Assembly (NCBI GenBank): GCA_963696985.1
Contig: CAVOMG010000001.1
Span: forward strand, 455,807 to 519,806
DNA: 64,000 bases
Direction: 5' to 3'
Source: an uncultured Thermoplasmata archaeon
GTDB lineage: Archaea > Thermoplasmatota > Thermoplasmata > Lutacidiplasmatales > UBA184
Made by a program: the position numbers and the translations under genes. Positions 25,936 through 58,556 of the stretch are shown one piece after another; within the stretch, counting starts at the first letter, position 1, and each line of letters starts with the position of its first letter. The notes under the pieces were generated by a model, which was not told where the DNA came from, ran no database searches, and worked only from the letters and a program-made list of their open reading frames with translations.

Positions 25936-25970
25936 TGTCCGGGGAGCGCGCCCGGTCTGAGCGCCTCCCG
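25936..25970 (-). other. 35-nt tRNA intron at 59/60 (strict hBHBh')
   Basis: GGGGG-TTCG-AA^C-GGGAG...CTCCC-CGGA-CA^T-CCCCC: a 4-bp central helix with two 3-nt bulges. Confidence 0.92.
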
Positions 25971-26009
25971 TTCGAACCCCCGACCACCTGGTTAAAAGCC
26001 AGATGCTCT

Positions 26010-26040
26010 TTGTAGGGCCGACGGCGGAACCGATCGGCCG
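26010..26040 (-). other. 31-nt tRNA intron at 20/21 (relaxed BHB/BHL)
   Basis: GTAG-GT^C-GGCCGA...TCGGCC-CTAC-AA^A. The central helix is GTAG/CTAC; the outer side is an internal loop (AG opposite AAA) closed by the D-stem. Confidence 0.88.
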
Positions 26041-26120
26041 ACCTACCTGAGCTACGGGCCCGCCCCAGTTCCCGGGCGCTCCGACGAGTGCGCCGTATTT
26101 CAGGTTTCGCACGGAACGGC

Positions 26121-26429
26121 TCACTGGAGGCTCTCCAAGCGCGAGATGAGCGACCAGATCGCGGTCCGGCCGTGGGTCGGGAGGTTGGGATCGTTCGCGA
26201 GCTCGTCGAGGGCGTACACGGCGCTCGCGATGCGCACGTCCGCCGCTCGACCGCGCCGCTCGAGCTCCGCCTTCGCCGCGAGGGCCCCGCGGCGCACATT
26301 CTTCGGGACGCTCAGGTCCTCGGCGAGCTCCCCGAGGGAGGCCAGCATCGGCTCGAGGTCCTGGGCCGGCCCGCGCGCCGGCGGCGCGGCGCCGACCGGG
26401 GCCGAAGCGAGGGGGAGCTCTCCGCTCAT
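26121..26429 (-). CDS. UPF0147 family protein
   Basis: EDLSVPKNVRR, LDELANDPNLPTHGRTAIWSLISRLES. Confidence 0.9.
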   Translation of the reverse strand: MSGELPLASAPVGAAPPARGPAQDLEPMLASLGELAEDLSVPKNVRRGALAAKAELERRGRAADVRIASAVYALDELANDPNLPTHGRTAIWSLISRLESLQ

Positions 26430-26768
26430 GCCCGATGGGCCTCCCCGCCTTCCTTGTAGGCGGTCACGACGAGCAGGGTCTTCGATTCCCGGATCCCGCG
26501 CACGCCGGGGAGCCTTCGCAGGACGAACTCCTTGAGCTCGTCGGTACTGCGGGAACCGGACCTTGAGGAAGATGTCGGTGTCGCCCGTGACGAGGAAGAC
26601 GTCCTGGACCTCCGGGAAGCGGCTCACCTCGGAGGCCACGGTGTCGGCCTCGGAGGTCTCGACCTTGAGCGCGATCAGCGCGGTCACGGCGTCCTCGCCG
26701 TAGACCTTCGTGAACGCGCTCTCGACCGTCCGACTCACCGGCCCTTCCCCCGAATCCCCGTGGTCCAT
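26426..26768 (-). CDS. Lrp/AsnC ligand-binding (RAM) domain protein without HTH; frameshift ~26545
   Basis: VFLVTGDTDIFLKV; the repaired C-terminus is DELKEFVLRRLPGVRGIRESKTLLVV. Its stop overlaps the UPF0147 ATG. Confidence 0.85.
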
Positions 26769-26832
26769 CGACTAACTCCGACGACGTGCGTTCCCTCTGA
26801 CTGCCATAGCAATGCCCCTCGATCGAGCGGTT

Positions 26833-27006
26833 CTAGCTCGCGGGGGCCGACTCGAACTCCTCTTGGAGGTCGTTGATCACCTGGTCAATGACGATCGAGG
26901 AGGTGGTCCCCCGGTACTCCCGGACGCCGCCCGCCTCGCTAGATACGCGGGCGACGATCTCGGCGGTACCGCGGAGAAACTCCACGCTGCAAATGAGCTC
27001 TTCCAT
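26833..27006 (-). CDS. Small acidic hypothetical protein (57 aa), missed by the ORF track
   Basis: MEELICSVEFLRGTAEIVARVSSEAGGVREYRGTTSSIVIDQVINDLQEEFESAPAS*; fills the intergenic gap, with an AT-rich TATA-like element near 27050-27067. Confidence 0.7.
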   Translation of the reverse strand: MEELICSVEFLRGTAEIVARVSSEAGGVREYRGTTSSIVIDQVINDLQEEFESAPAS

Positions 27007-27169
27007 GATGGCTCGGCCCCCACCGCGCCGCGGGGTCCGAAAAAGGTCACCTATTTATGGTTTATTGAGCGATGGGCCCGCGCTCCACCTTTCGACCCAA
27101 GCTAGGGCGCTCGAGACCAGTCGCGGCCCCTCCCCACGCCAAATACACGAGGTCCTTCGGGCCGGCCCG

Positions 27170-28018
27170 ATGGTCCGGACCTCGGGTTTCGCTTCGGTGG
27201 AGGGCGTCCGGATCTACTACGAGCGGGAAGGCTCGGGGAACCCGATCGTCTGGCTCCACGGCGGATTCCTCGACGGCCGCATGTGGGAACCCCAGTTCAC
27301 GCGGTTCTCCCAACGCTATGACCTCCTGCGGTACGACCAGCGCGGCTTCGGCCGCTCCGACCCGCCGACCCAAGACTACACGGAATCCTTCGACCTGAGG
27401 CACGTCCTCGACGGGGTCGGCATCCAAAGCGCCTACCTCGTCGGACTCGCGATGGGAGCGAGGGTCGCCCTCGATTTCGCGGCGTCGATGCCCACCCGGG
27501 TCGACGGCCTGGTGGCGATCGCCCCGACCCTCGAGGGATACGTCCCCTCAACGCCCGAAGAGGAGGCGTGGTGGAACGAGCTCGACGAGCGGGAGGAGGC
27601 GATCGAGGCGCTCGCCCAGCGGGACGGACCCGAGCGGGCGATCGAGGCGAAGATCGACGCCTGGGCGCCGAACGCCGATCCGAAGACCCGGTCCGAACTG
27701 ATCGCGATCGCCCTCGAGAACCAGCCGCGGGCGCTCGGGGAGCGGAACGTCTTCCGGCAGAAGGTCGTGCCGAGCACGATCGAGCGGCTCGGGGCGATCC
27801 GGTGCCCGACGCTCCTGCTCACCGGCGAGCGGGACTTCCCGGGGTTCGAGTCGGTGGCCCGGTTGCTCCTGGACCGGCTCCCCCTCGCCCAACAGTCGGT
27901 GCTCGCGGGGGCGGACCACCTCGCCAACGTCACCCAACCGGAGGCGTTCAACGAGCTCCTCGAGGGGTTCTTCGCCCGGCTCGATTTCATCGCCATGCAG
28001 CGCGGCTCGACCTGGTAG
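27170..28018 (+). CDS. Alpha/beta fold hydrolase with Ala at the nucleophile position
   Basis: WLHGGF, RYDQRGFGRS, LVGLAMGA (elbow), LTGERD and ADHLAN. Confidence 0.85.
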   Translation: MVRTSGFASVEGVRIYYEREGSGNPIVWLHGGFLDGRMWEPQFTRFSQRYDLLRYDQRGFGRSDPPTQDYTESFDLRHVLDGVGIQSAYLVGLAMGARVALDFAASMPTRVDGLVAIAPTLEGYVPSTPEEEAWWNELDEREEAIEALAQRDGPERAIEAKIDAWAPNADPKTRSELIAIALENQPRALGERNVFRQKVVPSTIERLGAIRCPTLLLTGERDFPGFESVARLLLDRLPLAQQSVLAGADHLANVTQPEAFNELLEGFFARLDFIAMQRGSTW

Positions 28019-28130
28019 GTCGGTACTTCCGTCCACGGTTGGCCCCGGGCCCGACGGCGCGACGTGAACGCGCTCCCGCTCGGGCCACCGTTAATAACTC
28101 GACTCCGTTCGACGGCCCGAGCGAGGTTCT

Positions 28131-28397
28131 GTGGTCCCCCCGACCGGTTCCACCACCATCGAGGTCCGCGTCGAGCTCAAGCCCGGGGTCTTCGATGCCG
28201 AGGGGGACGGGGTGCTCAAGGCGCTCCGGCTCCTGGGGATCGACCATCTGAGCGAGGTCGGCACCGCCCGGATCTTCCGGCTCCAGTTCGACGGGATCGA
28301 GCCCGCCCAAGCCGAGCGGCTGGCGGCCCGGGCGGTCGACCGGCTGCTCGCGAATCCGGTCGTCCACCGGGTGCTCGTCAGCGCTCCCACGGCCTGA
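28131..28397 (+). CDS. purS: FGAM synthase subunit PurS
   Basis: VELKPGVFDAEG and LLANPVV. Confidence 0.93.
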   Translation: MVPPTGSTTIEVRVELKPGVFDAEGDGVLKALRLLGIDHLSEVGTARIFRLQFDGIEPAQAERLAARAVDRLLANPVVHRVLVSAPTA

Positions 28398-28401
28398 TCC
28401 C

Positions 28402-30735
28402 ATGCCGGGACGCGCGGGCGGCTCCGGCGAGCGGTGGGCTCCGCAGATCGGGACCGTGCCGATCCTGGGGACCCGCGACCTCTCGAAGCTCTCGGAGGAG
28501 CGTGGGCTCGGCTTTTCGCCGACCGAGCTAGCACGGCTGAGGGCCCACTTCCGCCGCGTCGGTCGGGACCCGACCGACGTCGAGCTCGCCGGCCTCTCCC
28601 AGAGTTGGAGCGAGCACTGCAGCTACAAGAGCTCGAAGCACTGGCTACGACGGGGATTCAAGGGACTCGCACCGCGGCCTCGGGTCCTCGGGACCGGCGA
28701 CGCCGGGGTGATGGCGTTCGAGCCGGGGTTCGCCTACGCGCTGCGGATCGAATCCCACAATCACCCCTCCGCCGTGGAACCGTATGGCGGGGCCGCCACC
28801 GGGATCGGGGGGATCCTCCGGGACATCCTGGCGGTGGGGGCGAAGCCGATCGCCCTCGCCGACCCCCTGTACTTCGGCCCGCTCTCCACGCCCATGGCCC
28901 GGCTTCCGAAAGGGGTCCACAGTCCCCGGTACCTGCTCGACCAGGTCGTGGCGGGGATCCGGGACTACGGGAACCGGGTCGGTGTTCCGACGGTGGCCGG
29001 CTCGATCGGCTTCGATCCCGCCTTCACGGTGAACCCGCTCGTCAACGTCGGATGCCTCGGTTTCCTGCCGACGGCCCGGCTCCGCCCGAACCGGGCCGAA
29101 CGGGCCGGGAACCGCGCCGTCCTCGTCGGCGGACTCACCGGTCGTGACGGGATCGGAGGGGTCGCGTTCGCCTCGCGCGAGCTCAGCGAGTCGAGCGCCC
29201 GGTCGGAGCGGAGCCACGTCCAGCTCGGCAACCCGATCATGAAGGAGCCGCTCATCCACGCGTGCCTCGAGGCCTACGACCGGGGCCTCGTCCGGGGGGT
29301 GAAGGACCTCGGGGGAGGGGGCCTCGCCACGGCCTTCGGCGAGCTCGCGCATGCCGGGCGTCTCGGACTGATCGCGCACCTCGACCGGGTCCCGCTCCGC
29401 GAGGCCGACCTGCGGCCGTGGGAGATCTGGATCTCCGAATCCCAGGAACGGATGCTCCTCGAGGTGCGGCCGAACGACCTTCGTCCGGTCCTCGAGATCT
29501 TCCGACGGTTCGATGTCCCCGCGACCGAGGTCGGCCAGTTCGTCCGGGGCGGAAGGGAGCGGCTCTTCTACGGGGGCCGGCCGGTGGGCGATCTCGAGCT
29601 CGCCTTCCGGGTCGATCCTCCGCTCCTCGTGCGCCGCCGCCGAAAGCGGTCGGCCCCGCGTGGCCGCGGGCCGCGGGTGCCGGACGACCACCTCGCCGAG
29701 CTCCTCGAGTCCCAGCTCCTCAACGATGACGGGCGCTCCCGGGAGTCGATCATCCGGGTCTACGACCACGAGGTCCAGGGCCGGACCGTGATCAAACCGC
29801 TCCAGGGCCGTCCGATCTCCCCGTCGCACGGTGATGCCGCGGTGCTCCGGCCCCGCCCGCAGAGTCCGAGGGCGATCGCGGTAGCGGTGGCGAGCCAACC
29901 GTGGGCGTGCCGCCTCGACCCCGGCGCCGGAGCCGTGTGGACGGTGGAGGAGGCCGCCCGTAACCTCTACGCGGTCGGCGCGCGGCCGGATGCCCTCACC
30001 GACTGCCTGAACTTCGGCAACCCCGAGGACCCGAAGGTGCTCGGCGATTTCGTCGAGTGTGTGGACGGACTGGCCCGGGCCGCCCGGATCCTCGGGTTCG
30101 CCGTGCCGAGCGGCAACGTGAGCTTCTACAACGGGGGCCAGGGCGAAGGGATTCCTCCGACGCCGATCCTGCTCGCCACCGGGATCCTGGCCGACTACCG
30201 CTCCGCGATCACCTCCGACCTCAAGGAGGCCGGGGACCCGATCTTCCTCGTCGGACCGAGCGCCCCCGAGCTGGGCGGCTCCCTCTACGAGCGATACGGG
30301 GGCCGACCGATGGGCCGGCTCCCCCCGACCGACCCTGCCGGTCTCCGCGACCGAGGGCAAGCGCTCGTGACGGCAGGCGAACTCGGCCATGTCCGCGCGG
30401 CGCACGATATCTCCGACGGCGGCCTCGGCGTCGCCCTCTTCGAGATGGCGGCCGGCGGGGGCCTTGGGTTCTCCGTCGATCTCGCCCGAACCGGGCTTGC
30501 GGGCCCGGGTTCCGCGCTCGTCGCTGAAGGTTCGTCCCGATGGCTCGTCGAGGTCCGCGCGGGCTCGGCGCGGGCCTTCGAGCGCGCGTTCCGGGGGCGA
30601 CCGATCGTCCGGCTCGGGGAGGTCCGCGAGGGTCGAGGTCGCTTCGGCTGGAAGGAGAAAGAGGTCGGCCGGATCGACCTCGAGGGACTTTACGATCGGT
30701 GGCGCTCGGGCCTCGACGGATCGGGCGCCCCATGA
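28402..30735 (+). CDS. purL: FGAM synthase subunit PurL
   Basis: SWSEHCSYKS, ESHNHPS, DLGGGG, SESQERM, LNFGNPE and SGNVSFYN. Confidence 0.97.
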   Translation: MPGRAGGSGERWAPQIGTVPILGTRDLSKLSEERGLGFSPTELARLRAHFRRVGRDPTDVELAGLSQSWSEHCSYKSSKHWLRRGFKGLAPRPRVLGTGDAGVMAFEPGFAYALRIESHNHPSAVEPYGGAATGIGGILRDILAVGAKPIALADPLYFGPLSTPMARLPKGVHSPRYLLDQVVAGIRDYGNRVGVPTVAGSIGFDPAFTVNPLVNVGCLGFLPTARLRPNRAERAGNRAVLVGGLTGRDGIGGVAFASRELSESSARSERSHVQLGNPIMKEPLIHACLEAYDRGLVRGVKDLGGGGLATAFGELAHAGRLGLIAHLDRVPLREADLRPWEIWISESQERMLLEVRPNDLRPVLEIFRRFDVPATEVGQFVRGGRERLFYGGRPVGDLELAFRVDPPLLVRRRRKRSAPRGRGPRVPDDHLAELLESQLLNDDGRSRESIIRVYDHEVQGRTVIKPLQGRPISPSHGDAAVLRPRPQSPRAIAVAVASQPWACRLDPGAGAVWTVEEAARNLYAVGARPDALTDCLNFGNPEDPKVLGDFVECVDGLARAARILGFAVPSGNVSFYNGGQGEGIPPTPILLATGILADYRSAITSDLKEAGDPIFLVGPSAPELGGSLYERYGGRPMGRLPPTDPAGLRDRGQALVTAGELGHVRAAHDISDGGLGVALFEMAAGGGLGFSVDLARTGLAGPGSALVAEGSSRWLVEVRAGSARAFERAFRGRPIVRLGEVREGRGRFGWKEKEVGRIDLEGLYDRWRSGLDGSGAP

Positions 30736-31424
30736 CGAGTGCCCTGGTTTCCGGCGGGAAGGATTCGATCTACTCGGCCTCGCTCGCGGACGCCCAGGGA
30801 TGGACCGTCGACGAGCTCGTGGTGCTCGTCCCGCAGGACGTCGACTCCTACCTCTACCATACCCCGAACCTTTCGCTCGTCGCCCTCCAGGCGGAGGCGT
30901 GGGGGAAGCCGCTTCGCACCGTCCCGATCTCGGGGACCGGCGAATCGACCGAGACGGAGGCGTTGGAATCGGCCCTTACGGCCGGGAGCGGGCCGGTCGT
31001 GGCCGGAGCGATCGCCTCCGCCTATCAATGGAGCCGACTCCACCGGGTCACGGCCCGTCTCGGGCGGCCGCTCTACACCCCGCTGTGGGGGAAGGACCCC
31101 GGCCGGGTGGTGCGCTCGGAGATGGAGGCCGGTCTCGACATCCGTCTCGTCCAAGTCGCGGCGGAGCCGCTCTCGGCGGAGCTCCTGGGACGCCGCCTGG
31201 ATCTAAAGCTCCTCGAAGAGATCGAGTCGACCGGCGCTCGCCGGTCGGTCCATCCAGCGGGAGAAGGGGGGGAGTACGAGAGCCTCGTCGTGGACGCCCC
31301 CTTCTGGGACCATCGGATCGTGATCGAAAAGCAACGGATCGTCCACCGCGGCCTCGCGGCTCGGCTCGACATCGGGGCCGCCCACCTAAGCCCCAAGGGA
31401 CCCCGACCATCGATCGGGGCGTGA
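30732..31424 (+). CDS. dph6: Diphthine-ammonia ligase-like PP-loop ATPase
   Basis: SGGKDS, VAGAIASAYQ, PLWG and PAGEGGEYESLVVDAP. Confidence 0.9.
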   Translation: MTSALVSGGKDSIYSASLADAQGWTVDELVVLVPQDVDSYLYHTPNLSLVALQAEAWGKPLRTVPISGTGESTETEALESALTAGSGPVVAGAIASAYQWSRLHRVTARLGRPLYTPLWGKDPGRVVRSEMEAGLDIRLVQVAAEPLSAELLGRRLDLKLLEEIESTGARRSVHPAGEGGEYESLVVDAPFWDHRIVIEKQRIVHRGLAARLDIGAAHLSPKGPRPSIGA

Positions 31425-31456
31425 ACAATAGATATCTCCCGGGCCTCTCGAGCGGC

Positions 31457-32320
31457 ATGGGCCCCCCCGAGCGTTCGCCCCCTTCGGTCGACGCTCTCCT
31501 GAAGGCGGTCGGCGACGATCGGGCCCGCCCGGATCTCGTCTGGGTGAGCCGACTCACGGGGTGCGAACCCGCCCAAGTGCAGGCGAAGGTGGAGGAGCTC
31601 GGGCGGCACCTCGACGACCTCTCGTCGATGCATGCCGCTCAGCTCGACGGGGGTCGGGAGTTCTATGCACAGATCTGCGCCCCGTTCGAGCTCTACGCCC
31701 TCACCCGGCTCCTCCGGCCCACCCACATCGTCGAGACCGGGGTCTCCTCCGGGGTCTCCTCGACCCACTTCCTGCTCGGCTTGCTCGACAACGGTTCGGG
31801 GACCCTCCACTCGATCGACCTGCCGACCGTCCAGGCCGGGCCGGTGTTGGCGCGGGGGGAGTCCCCTGTGAGCCTGCCGCCCGACCGCTCGACCGGATGG
31901 GCGGTGCCTCCCGAGCTTACGCTCGGCTGGGACCTGCGGATCGGGCCGAGCCAAGAGCTCCTCCCCAGCCTCGTCGAGTCGGTCCCGGCGATCGATCTCT
32001 TCCTCCACGACGACCTCCATACCCCGACGCACCTCACGTTCGAGCTCGAGTCGATCCGACCGAAGCTGCGACCCGGTTCGGTGGTCCTCGCGGACAACAC
32101 GAAGTGGACCGGCAAGGCGTTCGACCGATTCGCCCGCTCGATCGATGCCGAGGTCGTCCGACGTCGCGACACGGATCTCGTCGGCCTCCGGGTGCCGGAG
32201 TACGGGGCGATCCCATCTTCGAAACCCCACGCGCGCCGCCGGCCAGCCCCTCGGCGACCGCCCCCTCGGCGGGCGGCCCCGAAAGCAAAGCGGCCCGTTC
32301 GCCGCCCGAGGGACTTTTAA
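31457..32320 (+). CDS. Class I SAM-dependent methyltransferase (Methyltransf_24-like) with a basic C-terminal tail
   Basis: IVETGVSSGVSS, LHSIDLP, IDLFLHDDLH and VVLADN. Confidence 0.85.
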   Translation: MGPPERSPPSVDALLKAVGDDRARPDLVWVSRLTGCEPAQVQAKVEELGRHLDDLSSMHAAQLDGGREFYAQICAPFELYALTRLLRPTHIVETGVSSGVSSTHFLLGLLDNGSGTLHSIDLPTVQAGPVLARGESPVSLPPDRSTGWAVPPELTLGWDLRIGPSQELLPSLVESVPAIDLFLHDDLHTPTHLTFELESIRPKLRPGSVVLADNTKWTGKAFDRFARSIDAEVVRRRDTDLVGLRVPEYGAIPSSKPHARRRPAPRRPPPRRAAPKAKRPVRRPRDF

Positions 32321-32344
32321 CGGGGGGCACGTTCGGTACCGACG

Positions 32345-34060
32345 ATGTCGGCGAGCCGGACGCTCCCGGGCCGCAGCCCCTCGGAGCGCGCGCCCTCCCG
32401 GTCGCGCGAGGGCCCTGTCGAGGCGGCTCGGAAGCGCTGGGAAGCCGAGGTCGAGCGCCCCGCCCTTGTCCGCGCGCCCGAGCGGCGGAATCCGTTCGAA
32501 TCCCTCGGCGGGATCCCGATCGACCGGCTGTACACCCCGCGCCCGGGCGCACCGAGGGCGGAGGAGTACCCGGGTCAGTACCCGTACACGCGGGGGATCC
32601 ATCCGACGATGTACCGGGGGAGGGTGTGGTCGATGCGGATGTTCTCCGGGTTCGGGACCCCCGAGGACACCAACGCCCGGTTCCGCTACCTCCTCAAGCA
32701 CGGGGAGTCCGGACTCTCGATCGCGTTCGACGACCCGACGCTCTACGGGATCGACGCCGACGACCCGGAGGCGCTCGGCGAGGTCGGGAAGTGCGGGGTG
32801 AACGTCTCCGGTCTCCCGGACATGGAGCGGCTCCTTCGGGGGATCCCGCTCAAGGACGTCACCACGAGCATGACGATCAACGGCCCCGCGAACATCGTCT
32901 GGGGGATGTACCTCCTGACGGCGGAGGCGGGCGGGACGCCCTGGGCCGAGCTCGGCGGCACGACCCAGAACGACATCCTGAAGGAGTACATTGCCCAGAA
33001 GGAGTTCCTCTATCCACCGAAGGCGGCCCTGCGGCTCGTCACCGACACCATCGAGTTCGCGACCCGGTCCACCCCGCGATGGAACCCGGTCTCGATCTCG
33101 GGCTACCACATCCGGGAGGCGGGCTCGACGGCGGTCCAGGAGCTCGCCTTCACGCTCGCCGACGGGATGACGTACGTCGAGGAGGCGATCCGTCGGGGCG
33201 TGCCCGTGGACGCGTTCGCGCCGCGCCTCTCGTTCTTCTTCAACTCCCACAACGACTTCTTCGAGGAGATCGCGAAGTTCCGCGCCGCGCGACGGCTGTG
33301 GGCCGAGACGATGCGCGATCGCTTCCACGCGCGCAAGCCGCGTTCCTTGTGGATGCGCTTCCATACGCAGACCGCCGGGTGCTCCTGCACCGCGCAGCAG
33401 CCCGAGCTCAACATCGTGCGGACGACCGTCCAGGCGCTCGCCGGGGTGCTCGGCGGGACCCAGAGCTTGCACACGAACTCCTACGACGAGGCGATCCAGC
33501 TGCCGTCCGAGGACGCCGTCCGAATCGCCTTGCGGACCCAGCAGATCCTCGCCTGCGAGAGCGGCGTCGCCGAGACGGCGGACCCGTTCGGCGGGAGCTA
33601 CTTTGTCGAGTGGCTCACCGACAAGATGGAGGAGGAGGCCCGACGATACTTCGAGCGCATCGACGAGATGGGGGGCGTGGTCGCCGGGATCGAGCGTGGG
33701 TTCTTCCAACGCGAGATCCAGGAGGCCTCCTTCCGCTACCAACGGGCGGTCGAGGCCGGGACCCAGAAGGTCGTCGGCGTCAACGCCTACACCCTCGACG
33801 TTCCGATCGAGGTCCCCCGGCTCAAGATCTCCGAAGAGGCGCGCCGGCACCAGTCCCGCCGTCTGCGCGCCCTGCGGTCGCGCCGGTCGGCCCGCCGTCA
33901 CGCGGCGGCCCTGGAGGCGCTCGCGAAGGTCGCCCGAACGGAATCCGAGAACACGATGCCGGCCGTCCTCGACGCCCTCCGGGCCCGGGCCACGCTCGGG
34001 GAGATCGTGCACACGTTCCAGTCGGTCTTCGGTACCTATCGAGAGCGCTCGATGTACTGA
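32345..34060 (+). CDS. B12-dependent acyl-CoA mutase large subunit (stand-alone), isobutyryl-CoA-mutase-type active site
   Basis: PYTRGIHPTMY, RMFSGFG, QNDILKEYIAQKE, SGYHIREAG, LHTNSYDEA and DPFGGSY; no B12-binding DxHxxG domain. Confidence 0.93.
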   Translation: MSASRTLPGRSPSERAPSRSREGPVEAARKRWEAEVERPALVRAPERRNPFESLGGIPIDRLYTPRPGAPRAEEYPGQYPYTRGIHPTMYRGRVWSMRMFSGFGTPEDTNARFRYLLKHGESGLSIAFDDPTLYGIDADDPEALGEVGKCGVNVSGLPDMERLLRGIPLKDVTTSMTINGPANIVWGMYLLTAEAGGTPWAELGGTTQNDILKEYIAQKEFLYPPKAALRLVTDTIEFATRSTPRWNPVSISGYHIREAGSTAVQELAFTLADGMTYVEEAIRRGVPVDAFAPRLSFFFNSHNDFFEEIAKFRAARRLWAETMRDRFHARKPRSLWMRFHTQTAGCSCTAQQPELNIVRTTVQALAGVLGGTQSLHTNSYDEAIQLPSEDAVRIALRTQQILACESGVAETADPFGGSYFVEWLTDKMEEEARRYFERIDEMGGVVAGIERGFFQREIQEASFRYQRAVEAGTQKVVGVNAYTLDVPIEVPRLKISEEARRHQSRRLRALRSRRSARRHAAALEALAKVARTESENTMPAVLDALRARATLGEIVHTFQSVFGTYRERSMY

Positions 34061-34076
34061 CCGGTCGGACCTCCTT

Positions 34077-36286: not shown

Positions 36287-36338
36287 CGGACCCAACTCAC
36301 CAAACCCTTTTCCTCCGCGGGCGCTCGGTTCGACGCCG

Positions 36339-47586: not shown

Positions 47587-47699
47587 GCGTTCGGTCGCGT
47601 TCGGGACGGTCGGCGACTCCCGCCGTCCCTCCGGTGGCTCGGTTGGCGCTGCCCGAAGTGGAAAGCCGATGGCTCGTCGGTAAGTGGTCCGGACAGGTC

Positions 47700-47706
47700 T
47701 TATATA
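47700..47706 (+). promoter_or_regulatory. Candidate TATA box (TTATATA) for psmB-aCPSF1
   Basis: About 50 nt upstream of the psmB ATG. Confidence 0.55.
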
Positions 47707-47756
47707 GGCAGGCCAAATCGGGAGCCTCGGTTTTCCGAAGCCGGTCGGTGGCATCG

Positions 47757-48428: not shown

Positions 48429-48488
48429 GGCCGCCCCCGCCTCGCCGGGCAACCCCTTCCCCCCCAACCCGTTCCAGACGAACCCAGA

Positions 48489-50393: not shown

Positions 50394-50520
50394 TCCTGCG
50401 GGGGGCGGTCGGCCGCTACCGAATGCCCCACGGAGGTTCTATCGGCGGCGGGGGGCTGGACAGTACGATTTATAGGAGCCGCCGGGTCAAAACCCCGACG
50501 GGGTAGGGGAGATCGCATCG

Positions 50521-52053
50521 ATGGCCATCCCCGCTCGTCGCGTCCTCGTGCTCGGCCTCGATGGGGGCACGTTCGACCTCCTTGACCCGTGGTTCCGGGC
50601 CGGTGAGCTGCCGTTCCTGCGCGGCCTCGCCGAGCGGGGGTTCCGATCGAAACTCCTCTCGGTCTATCCGGCGAAGACGATCCCCGCGTGGTACTGCGCC
50701 GCGACCGGCCAGGACCCGGGCGCCCTCGGCGTCTTCGGCTTCACCGAGCCGAACGGCGGCCCCGGGAAGAGCCGCGTCGTGCAGACGTTCCGTCCGGCCG
50801 AGGCGGTCTGGGACCGGCTCTCGCGCCGTGGGGTGACGGTCGGCGTCCTCAACTTCCCGCTCCGATCGGGGTACGCCATCAACGGCTTCGTCGTGCCGGG
50901 GATGCTCTCCGAATCCTCGGACACCTACCCCACGCGGTTGCGCGCCGAACTCGAGGCCCGCACCCACACCCCCCACGTCCCCGAGCTCCCCCCATACCGG
51001 GAGTCCGAGCGGGCGAAGTGGCTCGACCTCGCCACCCGGGCCGTCGACCAGTACGGCCGCTATGCCGAGATCCTCTGCGAAGAGTACCGCCCCGCGTTCC
51101 TCTTCACGCTCCTCAGGGAGACCGACCGCGTCGAGCACCAGCATTGGGCCGAGCTGACCCGACCGTTCGCGGAGATCGGCGAGGACCTGAAGCGGTTCTG
51201 GCGGATGGTGGACGGGACCTGCGCCCGGATCGACGCCTCGTTCCGAGCCGTGGGCGGGCCGCAGCGGACGTTCGTCATCTCCGACCACGGGCACGGGGCC
51301 GCCCGCTCGGACTTCTTCACGAACCGCTGGCTGGCACGCGAGGGCTACCTCGTCTTCCGAAAGCCGGCGACCGGATGGCACCGGCGGCTCGCCGCCCGCG
51401 TGCTCCTCGCTTCGGAGCGGTACCGGGCGACGCGGTGGCTCGTGCGGGGCCTCGCCGACCGGCTGCGCGGCGGCCGGGGGCGCAACTTCGTCGGGAAGAT
51501 GCTCGCGGGCGAGGGAAGCTTTGAGGCGATGGCGCCGAACATCGACTGGGAACGGACCGTCGCCTTCTCCTACCCGGTGCCTGAGGGGATCTACCTCAAC
51601 CGGTACCGCACCGCGATGACCCCGGAGGAGGCCGACCGCACGGTCGCCGAGATCCGCCACAAGCTCGAGACGTGCCCGGACGCCCACATCGAGGTCTTCG
51701 AACCCCGCGAGCTCTACCGGGGCCGCAACCTCTCGAACGCCCCGGCGCTCCTCCTGCGGATCGACGGGCTCGCGACCGAGACCCGCATGGACTTCAGCTA
51801 CCCTGAGCCGATGCTCCGGGACCGGCCCGGCTTCTTCTACGGGAGCGGGGTCCACCGGATGGAAGGGATCCTGCTCGTCGCGGGCGACGGGGTCGCCCCG
51901 GGCCGGCAGGGCGGACCGTTCTCGCTTCTCGACGTGGCCCCGACGGTCCTCGAGACGATGGGCGTGCCGCCCGACGCGGGGATGGCCGGCCGATCGTTCG
52001 GGTCGGCGCTGGGGGGACCCGGGGCCGACGCGGGCCCGGCGCCTCCCCTGTAG
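50521..52053 (+). CDS. Alkaline-phosphatase superfamily nucleotide pyrophosphatase/phosphodiesterase
   Basis: VLGLDGG, YPAKTIPAW (Thr nucleophile), TDRVEH, ISDHGHG, GVHRMEG and DVAPTV. Confidence 0.88.
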   Translation: MAIPARRVLVLGLDGGTFDLLDPWFRAGELPFLRGLAERGFRSKLLSVYPAKTIPAWYCAATGQDPGALGVFGFTEPNGGPGKSRVVQTFRPAEAVWDRLSRRGVTVGVLNFPLRSGYAINGFVVPGMLSESSDTYPTRLRAELEARTHTPHVPELPPYRESERAKWLDLATRAVDQYGRYAEILCEEYRPAFLFTLLRETDRVEHQHWAELTRPFAEIGEDLKRFWRMVDGTCARIDASFRAVGGPQRTFVISDHGHGAARSDFFTNRWLAREGYLVFRKPATGWHRRLAARVLLASERYRATRWLVRGLADRLRGGRGRNFVGKMLAGEGSFEAMAPNIDWERTVAFSYPVPEGIYLNRYRTAMTPEEADRTVAEIRHKLETCPDAHIEVFEPRELYRGRNLSNAPALLLRIDGLATETRMDFSYPEPMLRDRPGFFYGSGVHRMEGILLVAGDGVAPGRQGGPFSLLDVAPTVLETMGVPPDAGMAGRSFGSALGGPGADAGPAPPL

Positions 52054-52089
52054 ACGAAACCCTTTGTACGGCCTCCCGTAGTTCGCTCG

Positions 52090-53235
52090 ATGGGCTGGCG
52101 GATCGATTTCCTGGCCGCGGCTCCGCCTCAGGACGCCACCTCCGGACCGAGCCGGTCGCTCTGGGAGCTCGGCGCCGCCCTCGTGGCCCGGGGGCACGCC
52201 GTTCGGGTCCTCTTCCCCTCGGTGAACCCGCACGCCCGCCCCGATGTGAAGGGGGTGACGTCGATCCCGGTACCCGACCCCGGGCCGGGACGCCGGCCGT
52301 TCGCCCGAGACATCGCGCTCGGCCGCAACGCCTCCGACCTCCTCGACCCGGAGGTCGACCTGATCGTCGGGTCGGACGAGAAGGCCGGCGCCCTCGAGTG
52401 GGTCCACCGACCCAACGGCCGCCCGGCCTTCGCCATGATCGTCCACGAGGTCGCCTGGCACGTCTACGAATCCGGCCAGCCGGCGCTCACCCCGCGGGGG
52501 TTCCGAGAGCGGATCGGACGGTGGTCGGAGCGCCGCACCTTGAAGCGCCTCGAGGGGACGGCCCTCGCCCGGGCCCGCCTCGTCTTTGTGCCGTCGGAAG
52601 TGAACGGGGCGCTCCTACGCCGGATCTACGGCCTCACCGACCAGACCCTGCGGCTCCTCCCCCACGGCGTCGCCGATCCGATCGACGCCGGCTCCCGGGA
52701 GGAGGCCCGCATGGCGCTCAAGGTCCCGGCCGACGTACCGCTCGTCTCGTTCGTCGGCCGCCACCCCGACCGCCAGGGCCTCCCCATCGCGCTCTCGGCG
52801 TTCCATCGGGTGCGAGCGTTCTTTCCCGGCGCTCGCTTCCTCGTCGTAGGCGCGGACGCTCCGTCGGAGCCCGGGGTGACCTCCCTCGGGGTCGTCGACG
52901 AGCTCTCGAAGGCCCGAGTCCTGCGGGCGAGCGACGTCTTCCTGTTCCCCGCCCGCCACGAGGGGTTCGGCCTCGCCCCGCGCGAGGCGATGCGCTACGG
53001 GGTCGCGACCGTCGTGAGCCGGAACGTCCCCCTCGAGGGGACCGGCGCGAAGGCGGTCGCCCGGATCGTCTCCACCGACGACCCCGGGGACTACGCGAGC
53101 GAGCTCGCGGAGCTCCTCGCCGACCCGAAGCTCCGTCGGACGCTCGGCGAGTCCGGGCGGGCGTACGCCGACCAGTTCAGCTACGCCCGGATGGCCGATC
53201 ACTTCGAGCGGACGATCGCCCCGTTGCTCCCGTAG
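52090..53235 (+). CDS. Glycosyltransferase family 4 (GT-B)
   Basis: FVGR...QG, SDVFLFPARHEGFGLAPREAM and LGESGR. Confidence 0.88.
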   Translation: MGWRIDFLAAAPPQDATSGPSRSLWELGAALVARGHAVRVLFPSVNPHARPDVKGVTSIPVPDPGPGRRPFARDIALGRNASDLLDPEVDLIVGSDEKAGALEWVHRPNGRPAFAMIVHEVAWHVYESGQPALTPRGFRERIGRWSERRTLKRLEGTALARARLVFVPSEVNGALLRRIYGLTDQTLRLLPHGVADPIDAGSREEARMALKVPADVPLVSFVGRHPDRQGLPIALSAFHRVRAFFPGARFLVVGADAPSEPGVTSLGVVDELSKARVLRASDVFLFPARHEGFGLAPREAMRYGVATVVSRNVPLEGTGAKAVARIVSTDDPGDYASELAELLADPKLRRTLGESGRAYADQFSYARMADHFERTIAPLLP

Positions 53236-53797
53236 GCGGTTCGGGGCGGTCGGCGGCTTCGCTGAACTCCTCAAGCCTCCAGTCCCGGGTGCTGCGTCGG
53301 CCGGGGAGCTCCCGCCGCGAGGCCGGCAGGAGGTTCCACGCCACGCCGAGCGGCAGGGCCCCGGACTCAAGGAGGTCGAGCCGCTCGTGGAGCTGGCTCT
53401 TGAGCCCGGGGAACGGGTCAACTTCCCCGGGGCCGACGATCGGCCGGGCCGGTCGGAGGATCTGCACGCGGTCGGGCTCGACCCACCAGACTCCGACCCG
53501 ATGGCCCCGCTCGGCCACCGGCCGCTCCGCGATGCGCCGGGCGAGCCGCTCGTCCGGAACGGCGACGGCCACCCAGTCGGCCCATCCGCGACGCCGCAAG
53601 GCTTGCCTTAGGACGGTCCTTCCATCGTCGAGCTTCAGCTCGACGAGCCCGATCGTGGGACCGCGGCGAGCGATGATGTCGAAGTAGTCGGTCCCGTCCG
53701 GGTCGACCCACACCCGGTACCCCTCCGATTCGAGGTGGGTCGAGACCGGCGGGGCGAGCTCGCGCTCCCAGCGAGGCCGGGGACGTACCTGCCTCAC
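53177..53797 (-). CDS. PD-(D/E)XK nuclease-fold protein, third gene of the mutS-mutL operon
   Basis: The GTG start overlaps the mutL stop (GTGA); ERELAPPV..HL..EGY.V...DIIA...VELK...RQA......ADWVAVAVP. Confidence 0.75.
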   Translation of the reverse strand: MRQVRPRPRWERELAPPVSTHLESEGYRVWVDPDGTDYFDIIARRGPTIGLVELKLDDGRTVLRQALRRRGWADWVAVAVPDERLARRIAERPVAERGHRVGVWWVEPDRVQILRPARPIVGPGEVDPFPGLKSQLHERLDLLESGALPLGVAWNLLPASRRELPGRRSTRDWRLEEFSEAADRPEPPTGATGRSSARSDRPSGRS

Positions 53798-55578
53798 GGA
53801 GTGCTCCTCAGGAACCACTGGTCGAGGCGGCGACGGTCGAGCCGGACCAGGATCGGCCGTCCGTGGGGGCACGCATACGCGGCGTCGGGCAACCGGTAGA
53901 GAGCGTCGAGGATCCGTCCCATCTCCTCGGCCCGGATCTCATCACCCCCCCGGACCGCGGCGTGGCAGGCGATCGAGGCCGCCCGACGATCGACCCAATC
54001 CGTCGGCGCAGAACCCCGCCCTCCGTCGGCGATCTCGTCGAGGAGGCCCGGAAGGGCTTCGGCCCGGGCGAGGTGGCCGCGATAGACCGGGGTGCTCGCG
54101 ACCCGATAGGCCGAGCCGCCGAACGGCTCCACCTCGAACCCACCGGCCTCGATCTCCGAACGGTTCGCCTTCCATGCGGCCGCCTGCCGGGCCGTCAGCG
54201 AGACGGTCGTCGGCTGCACCAAGGTCTGGCGGGCGAGCCGCCCATCCGAGCGCAGCGCCTCGTAGACGACCCGTTCGCTGGCGGCGTGCTGGTCGACGAG
54301 GACCAGCGCGTCGTCGGATTCGGCGACCCAGTAGAGGCGGAAGAGCGAGCCCAGGAGCTTCAAGCGGGGGTGCCCGAGGGCCGGAGGTACGCTGCGGGGG
54401 CCCTCGAGTTCCCCGAGCCGGGTGATCGCGGTCCGACGCGCCGGCGTCGTCGCCCCGGCGGCGTGGCCGGCGAGGGTCGACGCGACCGGCGCGGTCGACG
54501 GGGCTGACGGGACGGTGGGTGGGTAGAACGGTCGGATCGGACGCGGACCGATCTCGGCGGCCCCCGCGCCCGCTTGCAGGGTGGCCCGGACCGCCCGACG
54601 GAGCCCCTCGGCGACCTCCCGCTCCCGGGCGATCCTCACCTCCCGCTTCGTCGGGTGGACGTTGACATCGACCCGGGCCGGGTCGACCTCGAGGTGGACG
54701 GCCCCCACCGGGTACCGGCCCTTCGGAAGGTAATCGTCGTAGGCGAGCCGGATCGAAGCCTGGAGCGGTCGAGACTGGACGATCCGTCCGTTGACGGAGA
54801 GATAGAGCGCCCCGAAGCTCGAACGCGAGAGGGTGGGGCGCCCGAGGACGAACGACGCCAAGAGGCCGGCCGGACCGAGGGGGACCGACCGGCCCTCGAG
54901 CGGCTGGTCGAAGAGCTCCTCGCCGATCACCCGGACCGCCGCGTCGGCGAGGGCCCCGGTCCGAGGGTATCGGGCGAGCTCCTCGTCCTCCGCGGCGAGC
55001 GTCAGGGCCACGCCGGGGCGAGCCAGGTAGAGGGCGCCCACGAGGCGGGCGATCTCGACCTGTTCGGCCGGAGCGCCGCGCAGGAACTTTCGACGCGCCG
55101 GGGTGTTGAAGAAGAGGTCGCGGACCTCGACGGTCGTCCCCGGGGGGCGCCCTTCGACGAACTCCTCGACCCGCGCGTCGCCGCCGAGGCGGACCCCGTG
55201 GGCGGCGTCGGACCCGGGGAGGCGGGAAAGAATCGTGAGGTGGCTCACCGAAGCGATCGAGGCGAGCGCTTCGCCGCGGAACCCCAGGGTCCGGATCTCC
55301 TCGAGCTCGTTCGCCTCGACGAGCTTGCTCGTCGCGTGGCGCTCCACCGCGAGCGGGAGCTCGGCGGGAGGGATCCCGACGCCGTCGTCGGAGACCCGGA
55401 TCCGGTCGATCCCGCCCCCCCATACCTCGATCCGCACCTCGGAGGCGCCCGCATCGTAAGCGTTCTCGACGAGCTCCTTCACCACCGAAGCCGGGCCTTC
55501 GACGACCTCCCCCGCGGCGATCCGGGCGACCGTCGCCGGTTCGAGCCTTCGGATCGCCCTCCGAGCCGTCCCGCTCAT
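53794..55578 (-). CDS. mutL: DNA mismatch repair protein MutL (endonuclease type)
   Basis: IAAGEVVE, KELVENAYDAGA, GFRGEAL, VDVNVHPTK, DQHAASERVVYE, ACH and CPHGRP. Confidence 0.96.
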   Translation of the reverse strand: MSGTARRAIRRLEPATVARIAAGEVVEGPASVVKELVENAYDAGASEVRIEVWGGGIDRIRVSDDGVGIPPAELPLAVERHATSKLVEANELEEIRTLGFRGEALASIASVSHLTILSRLPGSDAAHGVRLGGDARVEEFVEGRPPGTTVEVRDLFFNTPARRKFLRGAPAEQVEIARLVGALYLARPGVALTLAAEDEELARYPRTGALADAAVRVIGEELFDQPLEGRSVPLGPAGLLASFVLGRPTLSRSSFGALYLSVNGRIVQSRPLQASIRLAYDDYLPKGRYPVGAVHLEVDPARVDVNVHPTKREVRIAREREVAEGLRRAVRATLQAGAGAAEIGPRPIRPFYPPTVPSAPSTAPVASTLAGHAAGATTPARRTAITRLGELEGPRSVPPALGHPRLKLLGSLFRLYWVAESDDALVLVDQHAASERVVYEALRSDGRLARQTLVQPTTVSLTARQAAAWKANRSEIEAGGFEVEPFGGSAYRVASTPVYRGHLARAEALPGLLDEIADGGRGSAPTDWVDRRAASIACHAAVRGGDEIRAEEMGRILDALYRLPDAAYACPHGRPILVRLDRRRLDQWFLRSTP

Positions 55579-58203
55579 TCTGTACCCTCCGGGGGCGGGG
55601 GCGATCCGAGGCGGCGGCGCGCGTCGGCGAGCCAGCGGAGCGCGTCCTCCGGAGAGAGCCGATCGAGGTCGAGCGCCCGCAGCTCGCCTTCGATCGGATG
55701 GGGCGCGTTCTCGCCCCCCGGGAGGAGGATCGCCTGAGTGTACCGGGGGGCGCCGCTCTTCCGTCGCGCGGGTCCCGTAAGGTTCGGGCCGCCCTCCTCG
55801 AGTCGCTTGAGGGTGGCCTCCGCCTCATCGAGCAGGGGACCCGGGAGGCCGGCGAGCCGGGCGACATGGATGCCGTAGCTTCGGTCCGTGCTCCCCGGCA
55901 CGACGCGGTGGAGGAACACCACCTCGCCGCCGGTCTCCTGGACCGCGAGGTGAGCATTGCGGGCGCCGGCGAGCCCGCCGACGAGCTCGGTGAGCTGGTG
56001 GTAGTGCGTCGCGAGCATCGTCCGGCAGCGGACCGTATCGTGCAGGTACCGGAGCGTGGCCCACGCGAGCGCGAGCCCGTCGAACGTGCTCGTGCCGCGG
56101 CCGACTTCGTCGAGCAGGACGAGCGACCGGTCGTCGGCCCCACCGAGGATCTCGGCGACCTCGCTCATCTCGACCATGAAGCTCGACTTGCCGCGCCCAA
56201 TCTCGTCCGTGAACCCCATGCGGGTGAAGAGGCCCGAGACGACGCCGAGGCGGGCGTACTTCGCCGGAACGAACGCCCCGGCCTGGGCGAGCACCACGAT
56301 CAGCCCCACCTCCCGCATGTACGTGGATTTCCCGGACATGTTGGGGCCGGTGAGTACCAGCAGCCGCGCCCCGGCGGCGTCGAGTTCCACGTCGTTCGGG
56401 ACGAACTGCCCCGAGAGGGTGCGGTCGAGGACCGCATGGCGGCCGTCCCGCACCACGAGGACCCGAGAGTCGTCCACGACCGGGCGGACGTGGCCCCGCT
56501 CGATCGCGACCCAGGCGAGCGCCACGAGGGTATCGAGCTCGCCGACCGCCCGGGCGAGCCGGTAGACCGCCGGGACATGGACCTCGACCTCGCCGAGGAA
56601 TCGCTCCCACGCCTCGGATTCGACGCGGCGGGTCTCCTCCCGGGCCCGAAGGATCCGGCCTTCGAGCTCCTCGAGCCGGTCGGAGGTGAACCGCTCTCCG
56701 CCCGAGAGCGTCTGCTTGCGCCTGAGGTGGCCCGGGACCTTCGCGAGGTTCGGCCGGGAGACCTCGAAGTAGTAGCCGAAGACCTGGTTGTATCCGATCT
56801 TCATCGTGCGGATTCCGCTCGCCTCCTGTTCGGACCGTTCGAGGCCCTCGAGCTCCGTGAGGCCGCCGCGCTCTTCCTCGCGGAGAGCATCGAACTCCCT
56901 CGAGTAGCCCGGGCGGAACCGCTCGGAGATCTCCGGTTCCGCGCCGGTCGATTCGGGCAGGGCCGATCGGAGGAGCTCGAGGAGGCCGGGCGGAGGGACG
57001 AGCCGCCTCCGGAGATCCTCGAGGCGCCCGGGGGTGAGCGGGGCCGGAGCCCAACGGTCCGCGAGGCGGCCGACCGCTTCGAGGCTCTCCCGGAGCGCGC
57101 TGAGCTCGCTCGGTCGGAGGCGTCGGCTCGCGAGGCGGGCCGAGATCCGGGCGACGTCCGAGATGTTCCCGAGCTCCCGTCGCCAGGCGAGCAGCTCCGC
57201 CCCCCGGCTCGCGAGCCATTCGACCGCGTCCTGGCGTTCGCGGATCGCCTCGACCTCAGCGAGCGGGTGCTTGAGCCAGAGCGCGATCGTGCGATGACCC
57301 GGGGCCGTGACGGTCGCATCCCACGTCCCGATCAGGGTCGGACCGTTCGGGTCGTCGGGGTTCATCGGACGCGCGATTTCGAGGTGCCGGAGTGTCTTCG
57401 CATCGAGTAGGAGGCGGGCCGGGGCCCGGCCCGGCTCCACCGGCTCGAGATAGGGAAGGAGGCGGGGTTGGGTCGATTGGACGTAGCGCGCCAGCCGGAG
57501 GTCGGCCTCGAGCTCTCCCTCCGACCCCTCGAGCGCTAGGCCCTTCGGCAGATCGGATCGCGTGAGCGGCGCTGGGGCCGGCTCGATCCGGATCCTCGGG
57601 AACTCACGGCGGAGCGCACGGACCACCACGTCCGAGACTCCCGACGGGCCCTCGACGGAGAGCAGCGTCTCCCGGGGCGAGTACGGCGCGAGCGCGGCGG
57701 TCGCGCCTTCGGGGCCGCCCAGGCGAGCCGACCCCCGGTACCACTCGCCGGTGGTCACATCCACCGCCGCGAACCGGACTGGAGCGCCGGAGCGCAGGAC
57801 CAAGCTCGCGAGGAAGTTGCTCTCGGGCCCGGGGAGGATCCGGTCCTCGACCACGGTTCCCGGGGTGACGACCCGAGTGACCTCCCGCCGGACGAGGCCC
57901 TTCGCGAATCGGGCGTCCTCGACCTGGTCGCAGAGCGCGACCTTGTACCCTTTCTCGACGAGGCGGCCGAGATAGACATCGACGGCATGGTGAGGGACCC
58001 CGGCCATCGGTGTCCGCACCCCGCGGGCGTCCGGAGATCGGGCGGTCAGGACGACGTCGAGCTCCTTGGCGACGAGCCTCGCGTCATCGCCGAACGTCTC
58101 GAAGAAATCGCCGACCCGGAACAGCACGAGGTGGCCCGGGTAGCGCGCCTTGACCCCCTCGGTACTGTTCCATCAGCGGGGTCGAAGCGGCGGCGTCCGT
58201 CAT
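55575..58203 (-). CDS. mutS: DNA mismatch repair protein MutS (MutS1); frameshift ~58157
   Basis: Repaired start [35 protein letters not shown] (Phe-X-Glu); TGPNMSGKST, LDEVGRGTST, ATHYHQL and SYGIHVA. Confidence 0.96.
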
Positions 58204-58313
58204 CGGGAGGAGGACGAGCGAGCCCCGGATAATAAGCCGGGGGAACGCGCGCCCAGCAAAGCCACCTCCGGACCGGCGAATCCCAACATCGGGCCGGCGG
58301 CGCCGGAGGAAGG

Positions 58314-58400
58314 TGGCGCTGAGGGGGAGATTTGAACTCCCGGGGCGTTGCCGCCACCAGCTTTCAAGGCTGGCGCCTTTCCGGGCTAGGCTACCTCAGC
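58314..58400 (-). tRNA. tRNA-Ser(UGA), intronless, CCA encoded
   Basis: GCTGAGG/CCTCAGC acceptor stem; CCAGC CTTGAAA GCTGG anticodon arm; long variable arm; T-loop TTCAAAT. Confidence 0.96.
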
Positions 58401-58455
58401 ACCGGGGTCCCGAGGGCGGGCCGCCCTGAAAAATTCGTCGGTCCCGGAGGGGGGA

Positions 58456-58556
58456 TGCAGGCGCCGGGAGTTCCGCCCGCAGGTCAGCCCTGCCGGGGTT
58501 TCGAACCCGGGTGGTCAGCTTGGAAGGCTGACATCCTACCGCTAGATTACACCTGC
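58456..58556 (-). tRNA. tRNA-Gly(UCC) with a 30-nt intron at 59/60
   Basis: Removing 58470-58499 gives 71 nt: GCAGGTG TA ATCT AGCGGTA GGAT G TCAGC CTTCCAA GCTGA CCAC CCGGG TTCGAAT CCCGG CGCCTGC A. Confidence 0.95.
58470..58499 (-). other. 30-nt tRNA intron at 59/60 (strict hBHBh')
   Basis: CCGGG-TTCG-AA^A-CCC..GCAGG GCTGA CCTGC GGG-CGGA-AC^T-CCCGG. Confidence 0.92.

Follow-up and report, generated by a model that had tools for sequence, protein, structure and literature searches.

Non-canonical tRNA introns in a relative of Ca. Lutacidiplasma that encodes a single two-unit splicing endonuclease

The intron content of archaeal transfer RNA (tRNA) genes is usually related to the type of the splicing endonuclease EndA. 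According to reviews, introns interrupt fewer than 10% of the tRNA genes in Euryarchaeota whose EndA is alpha4 or alpha2, with one canonical intron in each interrupted gene (PMC4090602), and non-canonical or relaxed introns are removed only by (alpha-beta)2, epsilon2 or loop-bearing EndAs (PMC5829648, PMC6379350). The tRNAscan-SE 2.0 survey lists 25 non-canonical introns in 6970 genes of Euryarchaeota, 1 in 231 genes of Thermoplasmatales and 6 in 138 genes of Methanomassiliicoccales (PMC8450103, supplement 5/Table S7). Two described systems are close to the locus studied here. ARMAN-2 (archaeal Richmond Mine acidophilic nanoorganism; Ca. Micrarchaeum) has 59/60 introns in pre-tRNA-Cys(GCA) and pre-tRNA-Pro(GGG), where the T-stem and T-loop form half of a bulge-helix-bulge (BHB) motif in strict and relaxed forms (Fujishima 2011, PMC3239211). 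Methanopyrus kandleri has a D-loop intron (20b/21) in pre-tRNA-Glu(UUC), of the relaxed HBh' form, in which the 5′ side has a proper bulge and the 3′ site falls in a loop (Kaneta 2018, PMC5829648). In this study, we analyzed a 64,000-nucleotide (nt) stretch of DNA (the window, contig C1:455807-519806) from an archaeal genome (2.13 Mb, 3 contigs, 68% GC) of a Ca. Lutacidiplasma relative (Thermoplasmatota). Its tRNA-Lys(UUU) and tRNA-Gly(UCC) genes are both interrupted at the 59/60 site used in ARMAN-2, and tRNA-Lys has a second insert in the D-loop. The inserts are very probably genuine archaeal, protein-spliced BHB introns that belong to an ancient, lineage-wide set and are handled without a special splicing system.

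Interrupted tRNA genes in the window and in the genome

The window contains only three tRNA genes (Lys, Gly and Ser). The features are as follows, where h, H and h' denote the outer, central and inner helices of the BHB motif.

25922..26061, minus strand: tRNA-Lys(UUU), 140 nt; exons 26040-26061, 25971-26010 and 25922-25935
26011..26039, minus strand: D-loop intron of tRNA-Lys, 29 nt, at about 20a/20b; relaxed HBh'
25936..25970, minus strand: T-loop (59/60) intron of tRNA-Lys, 35 nt; strict hBHBh'
58456..58556, minus strand: tRNA-Gly(UCC), 101 nt; exons 58500-58556 and 58456-58469
58470..58499, minus strand: T-loop (59/60) intron of tRNA-Gly, 30 nt; strict hBHBh'
58317..58400, minus strand: tRNA-Ser(UGA), intron-free, T-loop TTCAAAT; 55 nt downstream of tRNA-Gly
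4449..5906, minus strand: RtcB, 3'-phosphate/5'-OH RNA ligase; PF01139, 567 bits, E 2.9e-170, profile positions 1-426 of 426

Removal of the two inserts from tRNA-Lys(UUU), the sole UUU isoacceptor in the genome, leaves a 76-nt cloverleaf (stem score 20.5/21; conserved positions 11/11). Its T-loop intron reads GGGGG-TTCG-AA^C...CGGA-CA^T-CCCCC. The 5-bp T-stem forms h, UUCG:CGGA forms H, h' has at least 5 bp, the bulges are AA^C and CA^U, and the BHB motif appears in the minimum-free-energy fold of the T-arm. The intron of tRNA-Gly reads CCGGG-TTCG-AA^A...CGGA-AC^T-CCCGG, with the same H (UUCG:CGGA) and the bulges AA^A and AC^U. Both T-loop inserts are located between N59 and U60 and share the T-stem as outer helix, a 4-bp central helix and two 3-nt bulges, while their inner hairpins differ. 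In the D-loop intron of tRNA-Lys, H is UAGG:CCUA (U17-A17a-G18-G19:CCUA), the adjacent h' has 6 bp, the outer helix has 0 bp, and the 3′ splice site is placed inside an internal loop closed by the D-stem. The original prediction had read this intron as 31 nt at 20/21. A length of 29 nt (26011-26039) appears to fit the BHB geometry best, although the exact junction is ambiguous and the 31-nt register could also apply. The remaining readings of the window in that prediction were reproduced, namely the two 59/60 introns with a CGGA-NN tail and unlike hairpins, the tRNA-Ser (TTCAAAT) without an intron, which leaves two of the three tRNA genes interrupted, and RtcB, which is a full-length match to PF01139.

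The genes were located with a scanner that starts from a T-loop anchor, enumerates BHB candidates, searches for the acceptor stem and scores the cloverleaf. Genuine genes score 27 or more on this scale, and noise reaches at most 25.7. The intact tRNAs of the genome score 27-32, the spliced products of tRNA-Lys and tRNA-Gly score 29-30, and the intron-containing genes (21 in total) score 27-31 after splicing, with the invariant nucleotides restored. The initial anchored scan demanded a perfect 4-bp H and missed nine hosts with A57; the demand was then relaxed to three of four pairs. Enumeration of BHB motifs genome-wide without a tRNA anchor returned 1.8 million candidates and was unusable. Standard finders performed poorly on these genes. 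In the window, ARAGORN detected tRNA-Ser only, and Rfam detected tRNA-Ser and a truncated tRNA-Gly (model positions 6-65), with tRNA-Lys absent even at E up to 10. ARAGORN with the -i option produced many spurious giant "introns" in the genome. Up to one third of the tRNA genes in such soil and peat archaea are missed by ARAGORN and Rfam, which is an annotation gap.

The genome has 46 tRNA genes that cover all amino acids (45 from the scanner plus tRNA-Ile(GAU)), and the set is complete only once the introns are spliced out. There are 23 introns in 21 genes, as follows.

T-loop 59/60 introns (14): Ala GGC, Arg UCG, Arg UCU, Asn, Asp, Gln CUG, Glu CUC, Gly UCC, His, Leu UAG, Lys UUU, Ser CGA, Ser GCU and Ser GGA
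D-loop introns (5): Arg GCG, Pro UGG, initiator Met, Lys UUU and Leu UAG
Canonical 37/38 introns (4): Tyr, Trp, one CAU and Leu UAA

The interrupted genes make up 46% of the set, 19 of the introns are non-canonical, and no gene of this genome has more than two. This intron load is unusually high for the group. The non-canonically interrupted isoacceptors without another gene copy number 17 and include the initiator, and the HBh' D-loop introns occupy single-copy essential genes (initiator Met, Lys UUU, Arg GCG and Pro UGG). In the window, introns had appeared to be confined to tRNAs with the T-loop TTCGAAT and to avoid TTCAAAT. However, nine of the 14 T-loop hosts in the genome have TTCAAAT; the contrast is an accident of the small sample.

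Three side observations concern the same tRNA genes or the window. The sole tRNA-Ile(GAU) (G000:C3:21783-21858, minus strand, outside the window) has an 8-nt anticodon loop, CTCGATAA. A lineage feature was considered and rejected, as ten orthologues in relatives all read CT-GATAA; judged from these orthologues, the extra C is private to the assembly, as either a consensus indel or a strain mutation. A sub-threshold match to the Guanidine-III riboswitch (window 26053-26125, plus strand) shares positions with the 5′ end of tRNA-Lys, which is encoded on the other strand, and was treated as chance (20 bits versus a gathering score of 36 bits). The window also contains a complete archaeal 16S rRNA gene (14498-15965, minus strand; Rfam 1483 bits).

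Structure, age and spread of the introns

The 14 T-loop introns are 29-35 nt long, with the 5-bp T-stem as h and an h' of 2-6 bp or more. The central helix has 4 bp in five of them, whose hosts have G57 and whose tail is CGGR. Judged from their predicted pairing, all are strict or near-strict hBHBh' motifs. When the 14 paralogous T-arms were aligned together with their introns, 89.6% were paired under the BHB model, a value reached by none of 500 shuffles; controls in which the model was slid gave 36-63%. Two-sided changes were observed in 13 of the 18 pairs. The five D-loop introns have an H of 3-4 bp, which involves the G18-G19 region or the bases immediately before it, and an h' of 4-6 bp. 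H of the Lys D-loop intron is 100% paired in 20 orthologues and includes two exon-intron compensatory pairs (UA to CG and AU to CG); h' covaries too.

The intron structures are kept through compensatory changes in orthologues of 24 or more species, and their distribution differs from gene to gene. tRNA-Lys(UUU) with both introns at the same positions was found in 20 same-genus genomes, in two families of the order (f2 and f3) and in at least two class-level families (f6 and f7). The Lys intron sequences are fully diverged among these relatives and range from GC-rich to AT-rich. In some other families, tRNA-Lys(UUU) has three introns or the T-loop intron alone. All 24 other genomes of the genus have the tRNA-Gly(UCC) intron, whose hairpins have diverged and show compensating changes; the orthologues that were recovered from four other families of the class lack it. 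The pairing of tRNA-Gly with tRNA-Ser and the intron-free state of tRNA-Ser(UGA) are conserved in the genus. From this distribution, the Lys introns are probably no younger than an ancestor shared by several families of the class, and the Gly intron probably arose within the family or genus. An old Lys intron and a younger Gly intron at one site represent a dated series of gains, which is useful for studying how tRNA introns spread in archaea.

Recent copying among the paralogous T-loop introns was considered and rejected, because their similarity is no greater than that of composition-matched shuffles (mean identity 0.625 versus 0.618; best pair 0.82 versus a 95th percentile of 0.80). The original prediction that the introns are not recent copies agrees with this result and with the orthologues, which are fixed in position but diverged in sequence across the genus, order and class. 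By these comparisons, the introns are old, were gained at different times and are held by structure.

A covariance model (R1) was built from the 14 paralogous T-loop introns. It gave exactly 14 matches in the source genome, all of which are true introns. Members of the genus gave 7-15 matches per genome and four sister genera of the same family gave 5-12, with 1-6 in family f27 and 0-2 elsewhere. All 39 same-family genomes searched have 5-15 matches, and at E <=0.001 R1 matched no fewer than 117 of the 251 genomes of the class; the phenomenon is one of the lineage, as had been proposed. The class-wide counts are lower bounds because R1 misses AT-rich and short introns: family f3 gives 0 matches under strict filters, although 8-10 introns exist. 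Of 13 other families, 10 yielded further verified T-loop introns.

The T-loop introns of family f3 (same order; genomes G026 and G028) have an unusual form. They are 11-14 nt long and lack the inner helix, and the 5′ splice site is located in the hairpin loop, similar to bulge-helix-loop (BHL) or hBH motifs (loci L105, L106, L114, L115, L119, L120, L123, L124 and L126). They are often accompanied by a canonical 13-14-nt intron in the same gene. Three introns per gene, in the D-loop, anticodon loop and T-loop, were observed in tRNA-Lys(UUU) and tRNA-Arg(CCG) of other families of the class (L101 in G036; L110 and L125 in G032).

From the anatomy, covariation and phyletic pattern of the introns, together with the architecture and inheritance of EndA described below, we infer the following course of cleavage, ligation and intron gain. 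The T-stem serves as the outer helix and a private GC-rich hairpin as the inner helix, and T54-U55-C56-R57 pairs with the (C/G)GRR tail at the 3′ end of the intron to form a 4-bp central helix. The two 3-nt bulges place the cuts after N59 and before U60. The single alpha'2 EndA would cut two nucleotides into each bulge, and RtcB would ligate the exons. The 59/60 site probably recurs because the invariant T-loop, together with the T-stem, already supplies half of a BHB motif; any hairpin ending in YGRR-NN after N59 would make a substrate in any tRNA. The same logic may hold for the G18-G19 region of the D-loop. The family of the source genome has accumulated 5-15 T-loop introns per genome.

The splicing endonuclease and the competing explanations

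A search of the genome with PF01974 found only one open reading frame (ORF), located at G000:C1:101149-102207 (minus strand, 353 aa), and a gene for a separate structural subunit was absent. The protein matches PF02778 twice and PF01974 twice, and the alignment of the internal repeat is collinear. It is predicted to be an EndA of the alpha'2 type, with two tandem units in one polypeptide, that forms a homodimer. The catalytic residues Y291, H299 and K330 are found in the C-terminal unit only; in the N-terminal unit, L107 takes the place of Tyr and the His is missing. The best match among solved structures is the alpha'2 enzyme of Archaeoglobus fulgidus (E 3e-29, full length), while the epsilon2 enzyme of ARMAN-2 (4FZ2) matches residues 219-340 only. 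At the site of the crenarchaea-specific loop (CSL), EndA reads YGSRIGDRLEVSL; this segment has the same length as in A. fulgidus and aligns without the 10-residue CSL insert that the 3P1Y chimera has there. An L3 insertion is also absent, as residues 185-348 (the catalytic unit) align with positions 3-166 of the narrow-specificity enzyme of Methanocaldococcus jannaschii (1A79) with a single 2-residue gap, and the layout has two units instead of the three of the epsilon type. By these alignments, EndA possesses none of the three known specificity loops, L1/CSL, L2/ARMAN-specific loop (ASL) and L3 (PMC5829648).

The structural N-terminal unit is not shortened. It contains the loop PRGGxxxKTPxxxW (here PRGGSSTRPRRSTW), which is conserved together with its Lys in all relatives of the class that were aligned; the basic loop comprises residues 108-119, PRGGSSTRPRRS. 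The NCBIfam profile NF006795 (350 positions) aligns to EndA with almost no length difference. Because its length and layout fit this profile, EndA is not called atypical on account of the N-terminal loop. EndA was matched in 39 of 40 relatives, nearly always as one full-length copy; a few fragmented assemblies show two pieces. It has 62% identity to the EndA of the metagenome-assembled genome of Ca. Lutacidiplasma silvani, inside the same-genus range of 59-73%, and the identity is 35-43% in other families. This fall with taxonomic distance indicates vertical inheritance. A homologous-protein search with EndA returned close relatives only and was of no help for comparing distant alpha'2 enzymes.

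Several observations weigh against the view that this EndA splices genuine introns out of the tRNAs. Nine of the 14 T-loop introns have an imperfect central helix, with 3 bp and an A57xG or A57xC mismatch beside the 5′ bulge. The tails of these nine A57 hosts are GGRR (eight) or CGAG (one), and A57 faces G (eight) or C (one) but never U. Four of the five D-loop introns are relaxed HBh' motifs without an outer helix, and their 3′ splice site is located in an internal loop closed by the D-stem. In vitro, the alpha'2 EndA of A. fulgidus and the loop-less enzyme of M. kandleri remove a comparable 20b/21 HBh' D-loop intron poorly (PMC5829648); because the A. fulgidus enzyme handles HBh' poorly, we infer rather than observe that an alpha'2 EndA cuts the relaxed D-loop introns. 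Many peat and soil metatranscriptomes contain the 16S rRNA of close relatives (31-mers shared at 0.6-0.7), and spliced joints were not seen at the Lys locus in contigs of four peat metatranscriptomes. An exact 42-nt peat contig with a depth of 263 corresponds to window 25969-26009, where it spans Lys exon 2 and runs two bases into the T-loop intron. This contig is consistent with an abundant unspliced precursor or with DNA from several strains. One other metatranscriptome contig was set aside, as it is derived from an intron-free tRNA-Lys of another organism.

The A57 hosts of AT-rich relatives do have a UGAA tail, with U opposite A57, and an AxG mismatch is also found in two canonical introns (Met CAU and Leu UAA). 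GC pressure seems to have produced the A57 mismatch as a side effect, which the enzyme would tolerate. Archaeal EndAs cut strict BHB motifs wherever these lie (reviewed in PMC6379350). The T-loop introns should need no special enzyme, and the question of specificity should be limited to the relaxed forms, which are the D-loop introns and the short T-loop introns of family f3. For these forms, a modest activity of EndA may be enough in vivo, as in M. kandleri.

Other explanations were weighed against this one. The inserts might be decayed tRNA pseudogenes or assembly artefacts, since standard finders fail on these genes and at least one tRNA of the assembly carries a private 1-nt indel. The chance of this is vanishingly small, because the genes in question are the only ones for 17 non-canonically interrupted isoacceptors, including the initiator, and the same positions are occupied in dozens of independent assemblies with compensatory changes. 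The original prediction held that the genome may encode an atypical or horizontally acquired EndA and suggested a search for crenarchaeal- or ARMAN-type specificity loops. A CSL-bearing (alpha-beta)2 enzyme or an epsilon2 enzyme with an ASL would permit non-canonical introns, and loads with many such introns, some of them relaxed, accompany loop-bearing enzymes (PMC5829648, PMC6379350). However, the single endA has two units and not three, a separate beta gene is absent, the CSL/ASL site has no insertion, and only one 2-residue gap separates its catalytic unit from M. jannaschii 1A79. Moreover, its best structural match is the alpha'2 enzyme of A. fulgidus, with ARMAN-2 4FZ2 matching in part, and its identity tracks taxonomy in 40 relatives. 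An enzyme of either kind is thus very improbable here, and the prediction gives way to a single, loop-less, vertically inherited alpha'2 EndA.

Selection could also keep the T-loop introns because they split the attachment (att) core of integrative elements, which extends from the T-loop to the 3′ end. This integration-blocking idea, which the original prediction had also raised, has already been published by Randau and Soll (2008), as cited in PMC4090602. One element of the source genome is relevant to it.

G000:C1:639902-661445, outside the window: probable integrated element, 21.5 kb, at the intron-free tRNA-Lys(CUU)

The last 21 nt of tRNA-Lys(CUU) (T54-G73) are repeated exactly and in direct orientation 21.5 kb downstream, and the GC content of the element is 62.7% versus 68.3% for the genome. 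An ORF beside the tRNA (640018-641436) has a weak integrase match, and 642999-644384 encodes an IS66 transposase. In this one case, an element of the lineage could integrate through an att core of the kind that would be interrupted by a 59/60 intron. However, it is a single case without statistics, and 25 intron-free tRNAs are still open as targets. The introns persist over class-level times whatever the local mobile elements, and the D-loop introns are left unexplained. Selection of this kind is therefore unlikely to be what keeps the introns.

The last explanation concerns the enzyme itself. The alpha'2 EndA of the clade may have acquired a broadened specificity through an unrecognised determinant, for which the intact loop of the N-terminal unit, absent in A. 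fulgidus EndA, is a candidate. HBh' D-loop introns are located in single-copy essential genes, and the one in tRNA-Lys is conserved across the class; a sister family has the 11-14-nt BHL-like T-loop introns; the loop and its Lys are conserved in all class relatives aligned; and A. fulgidus EndA processes a substrate of this type poorly (PMC5829648). However, judged from the fit to NF006795, an alpha'2 enzyme of this length and layout does not seem out of the ordinary, and the nearness of the loop to the RNA is without structural support. M. kandleri also retains a single HBh' D-loop intron while its enzyme is loop-less and constrained, and modest activity may therefore suffice. We regard a broadened specificity as possible, although we would not favor it. 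Splicing of genuine, ancient introns without a special system is still the reading that best accounts for the introns.

Comparison with known systems

The observation of unusual introns in the window is confirmed and extended to the genome and its relatives. The interpretation attached to it is partly supported: the phenomenon is at the level of the lineage, and the special or foreign EndA is not found. The stated rule that connects EndA with introns is broken in this genome, in which 46% of the tRNA genes are interrupted and 19 non-canonical introns coexist with a loop-less alpha'2 enzyme, and likewise in its relatives. We tentatively suggest, at less than even odds, that a clade of Thermoplasmata, with a peak in the Lutacidiplasma family, has long kept relaxed and multiple non-canonical introns in essential genes with a loop-less alpha'2 EndA only, and that this enzyme is broad by virtue of an undescribed determinant, possibly the basic loop of the structural unit. 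If this is true, the textbook link of EndA architecture and loops to intron diversity would be broken. To test the model of EndA-intron co-evolution here, a single recombinant enzyme and a few natural substrates would be enough. Introns of this kind are known; their scale in Thermoplasmatota and their pairing with a loop-less alpha'2 EndA are not described in the literature searched.

The T-loop introns share their splice site and the half-BHB formed by the T-stem and T-loop with those of ARMAN-2. ARMAN-2 has few such introns and a three-unit epsilon2 EndA with a specificity loop, whereas 14 are present in the genome studied here together with a two-unit alpha'2 EndA without the loop. The D-loop introns resemble that of M. 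kandleri in their relaxed HBh' form, and the EndA of M. kandleri, like the enzyme here, has no CSL, ASL or L3 loop. In M. kandleri, a single intron of this kind occurs with an (alpha-beta)2 enzyme, in contrast to five D-loop introns, including one in the sole initiator tRNA, and an alpha'2 enzyme here. With regard to intron load, the multi-intron tRNAs of Thermoproteales and Thaumarchaeota are comparable (PMC8450103), with 0.84 intron per gene in Thermoproteales versus 0.5 here. Multi-intron genes are a shared property, with up to two introns per gene in the source genome and up to three in its relatives. However, these groups have a CSL-bearing (alpha-beta)2 EndA and introns at many positions, while the non-canonical introns here are found at 59/60 and in the D-loop only. 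The enzyme itself is closest to the alpha'2 EndA of A. fulgidus (PDB 1RLV, 2GJW), with which it shares the two tandem units and the catalytic triad in the C-terminal unit. In A. fulgidus, the N-terminal unit is shortened and the introns are canonical only, whereas in the EndA studied here this unit is full and the basic loop 108-119 is kept.

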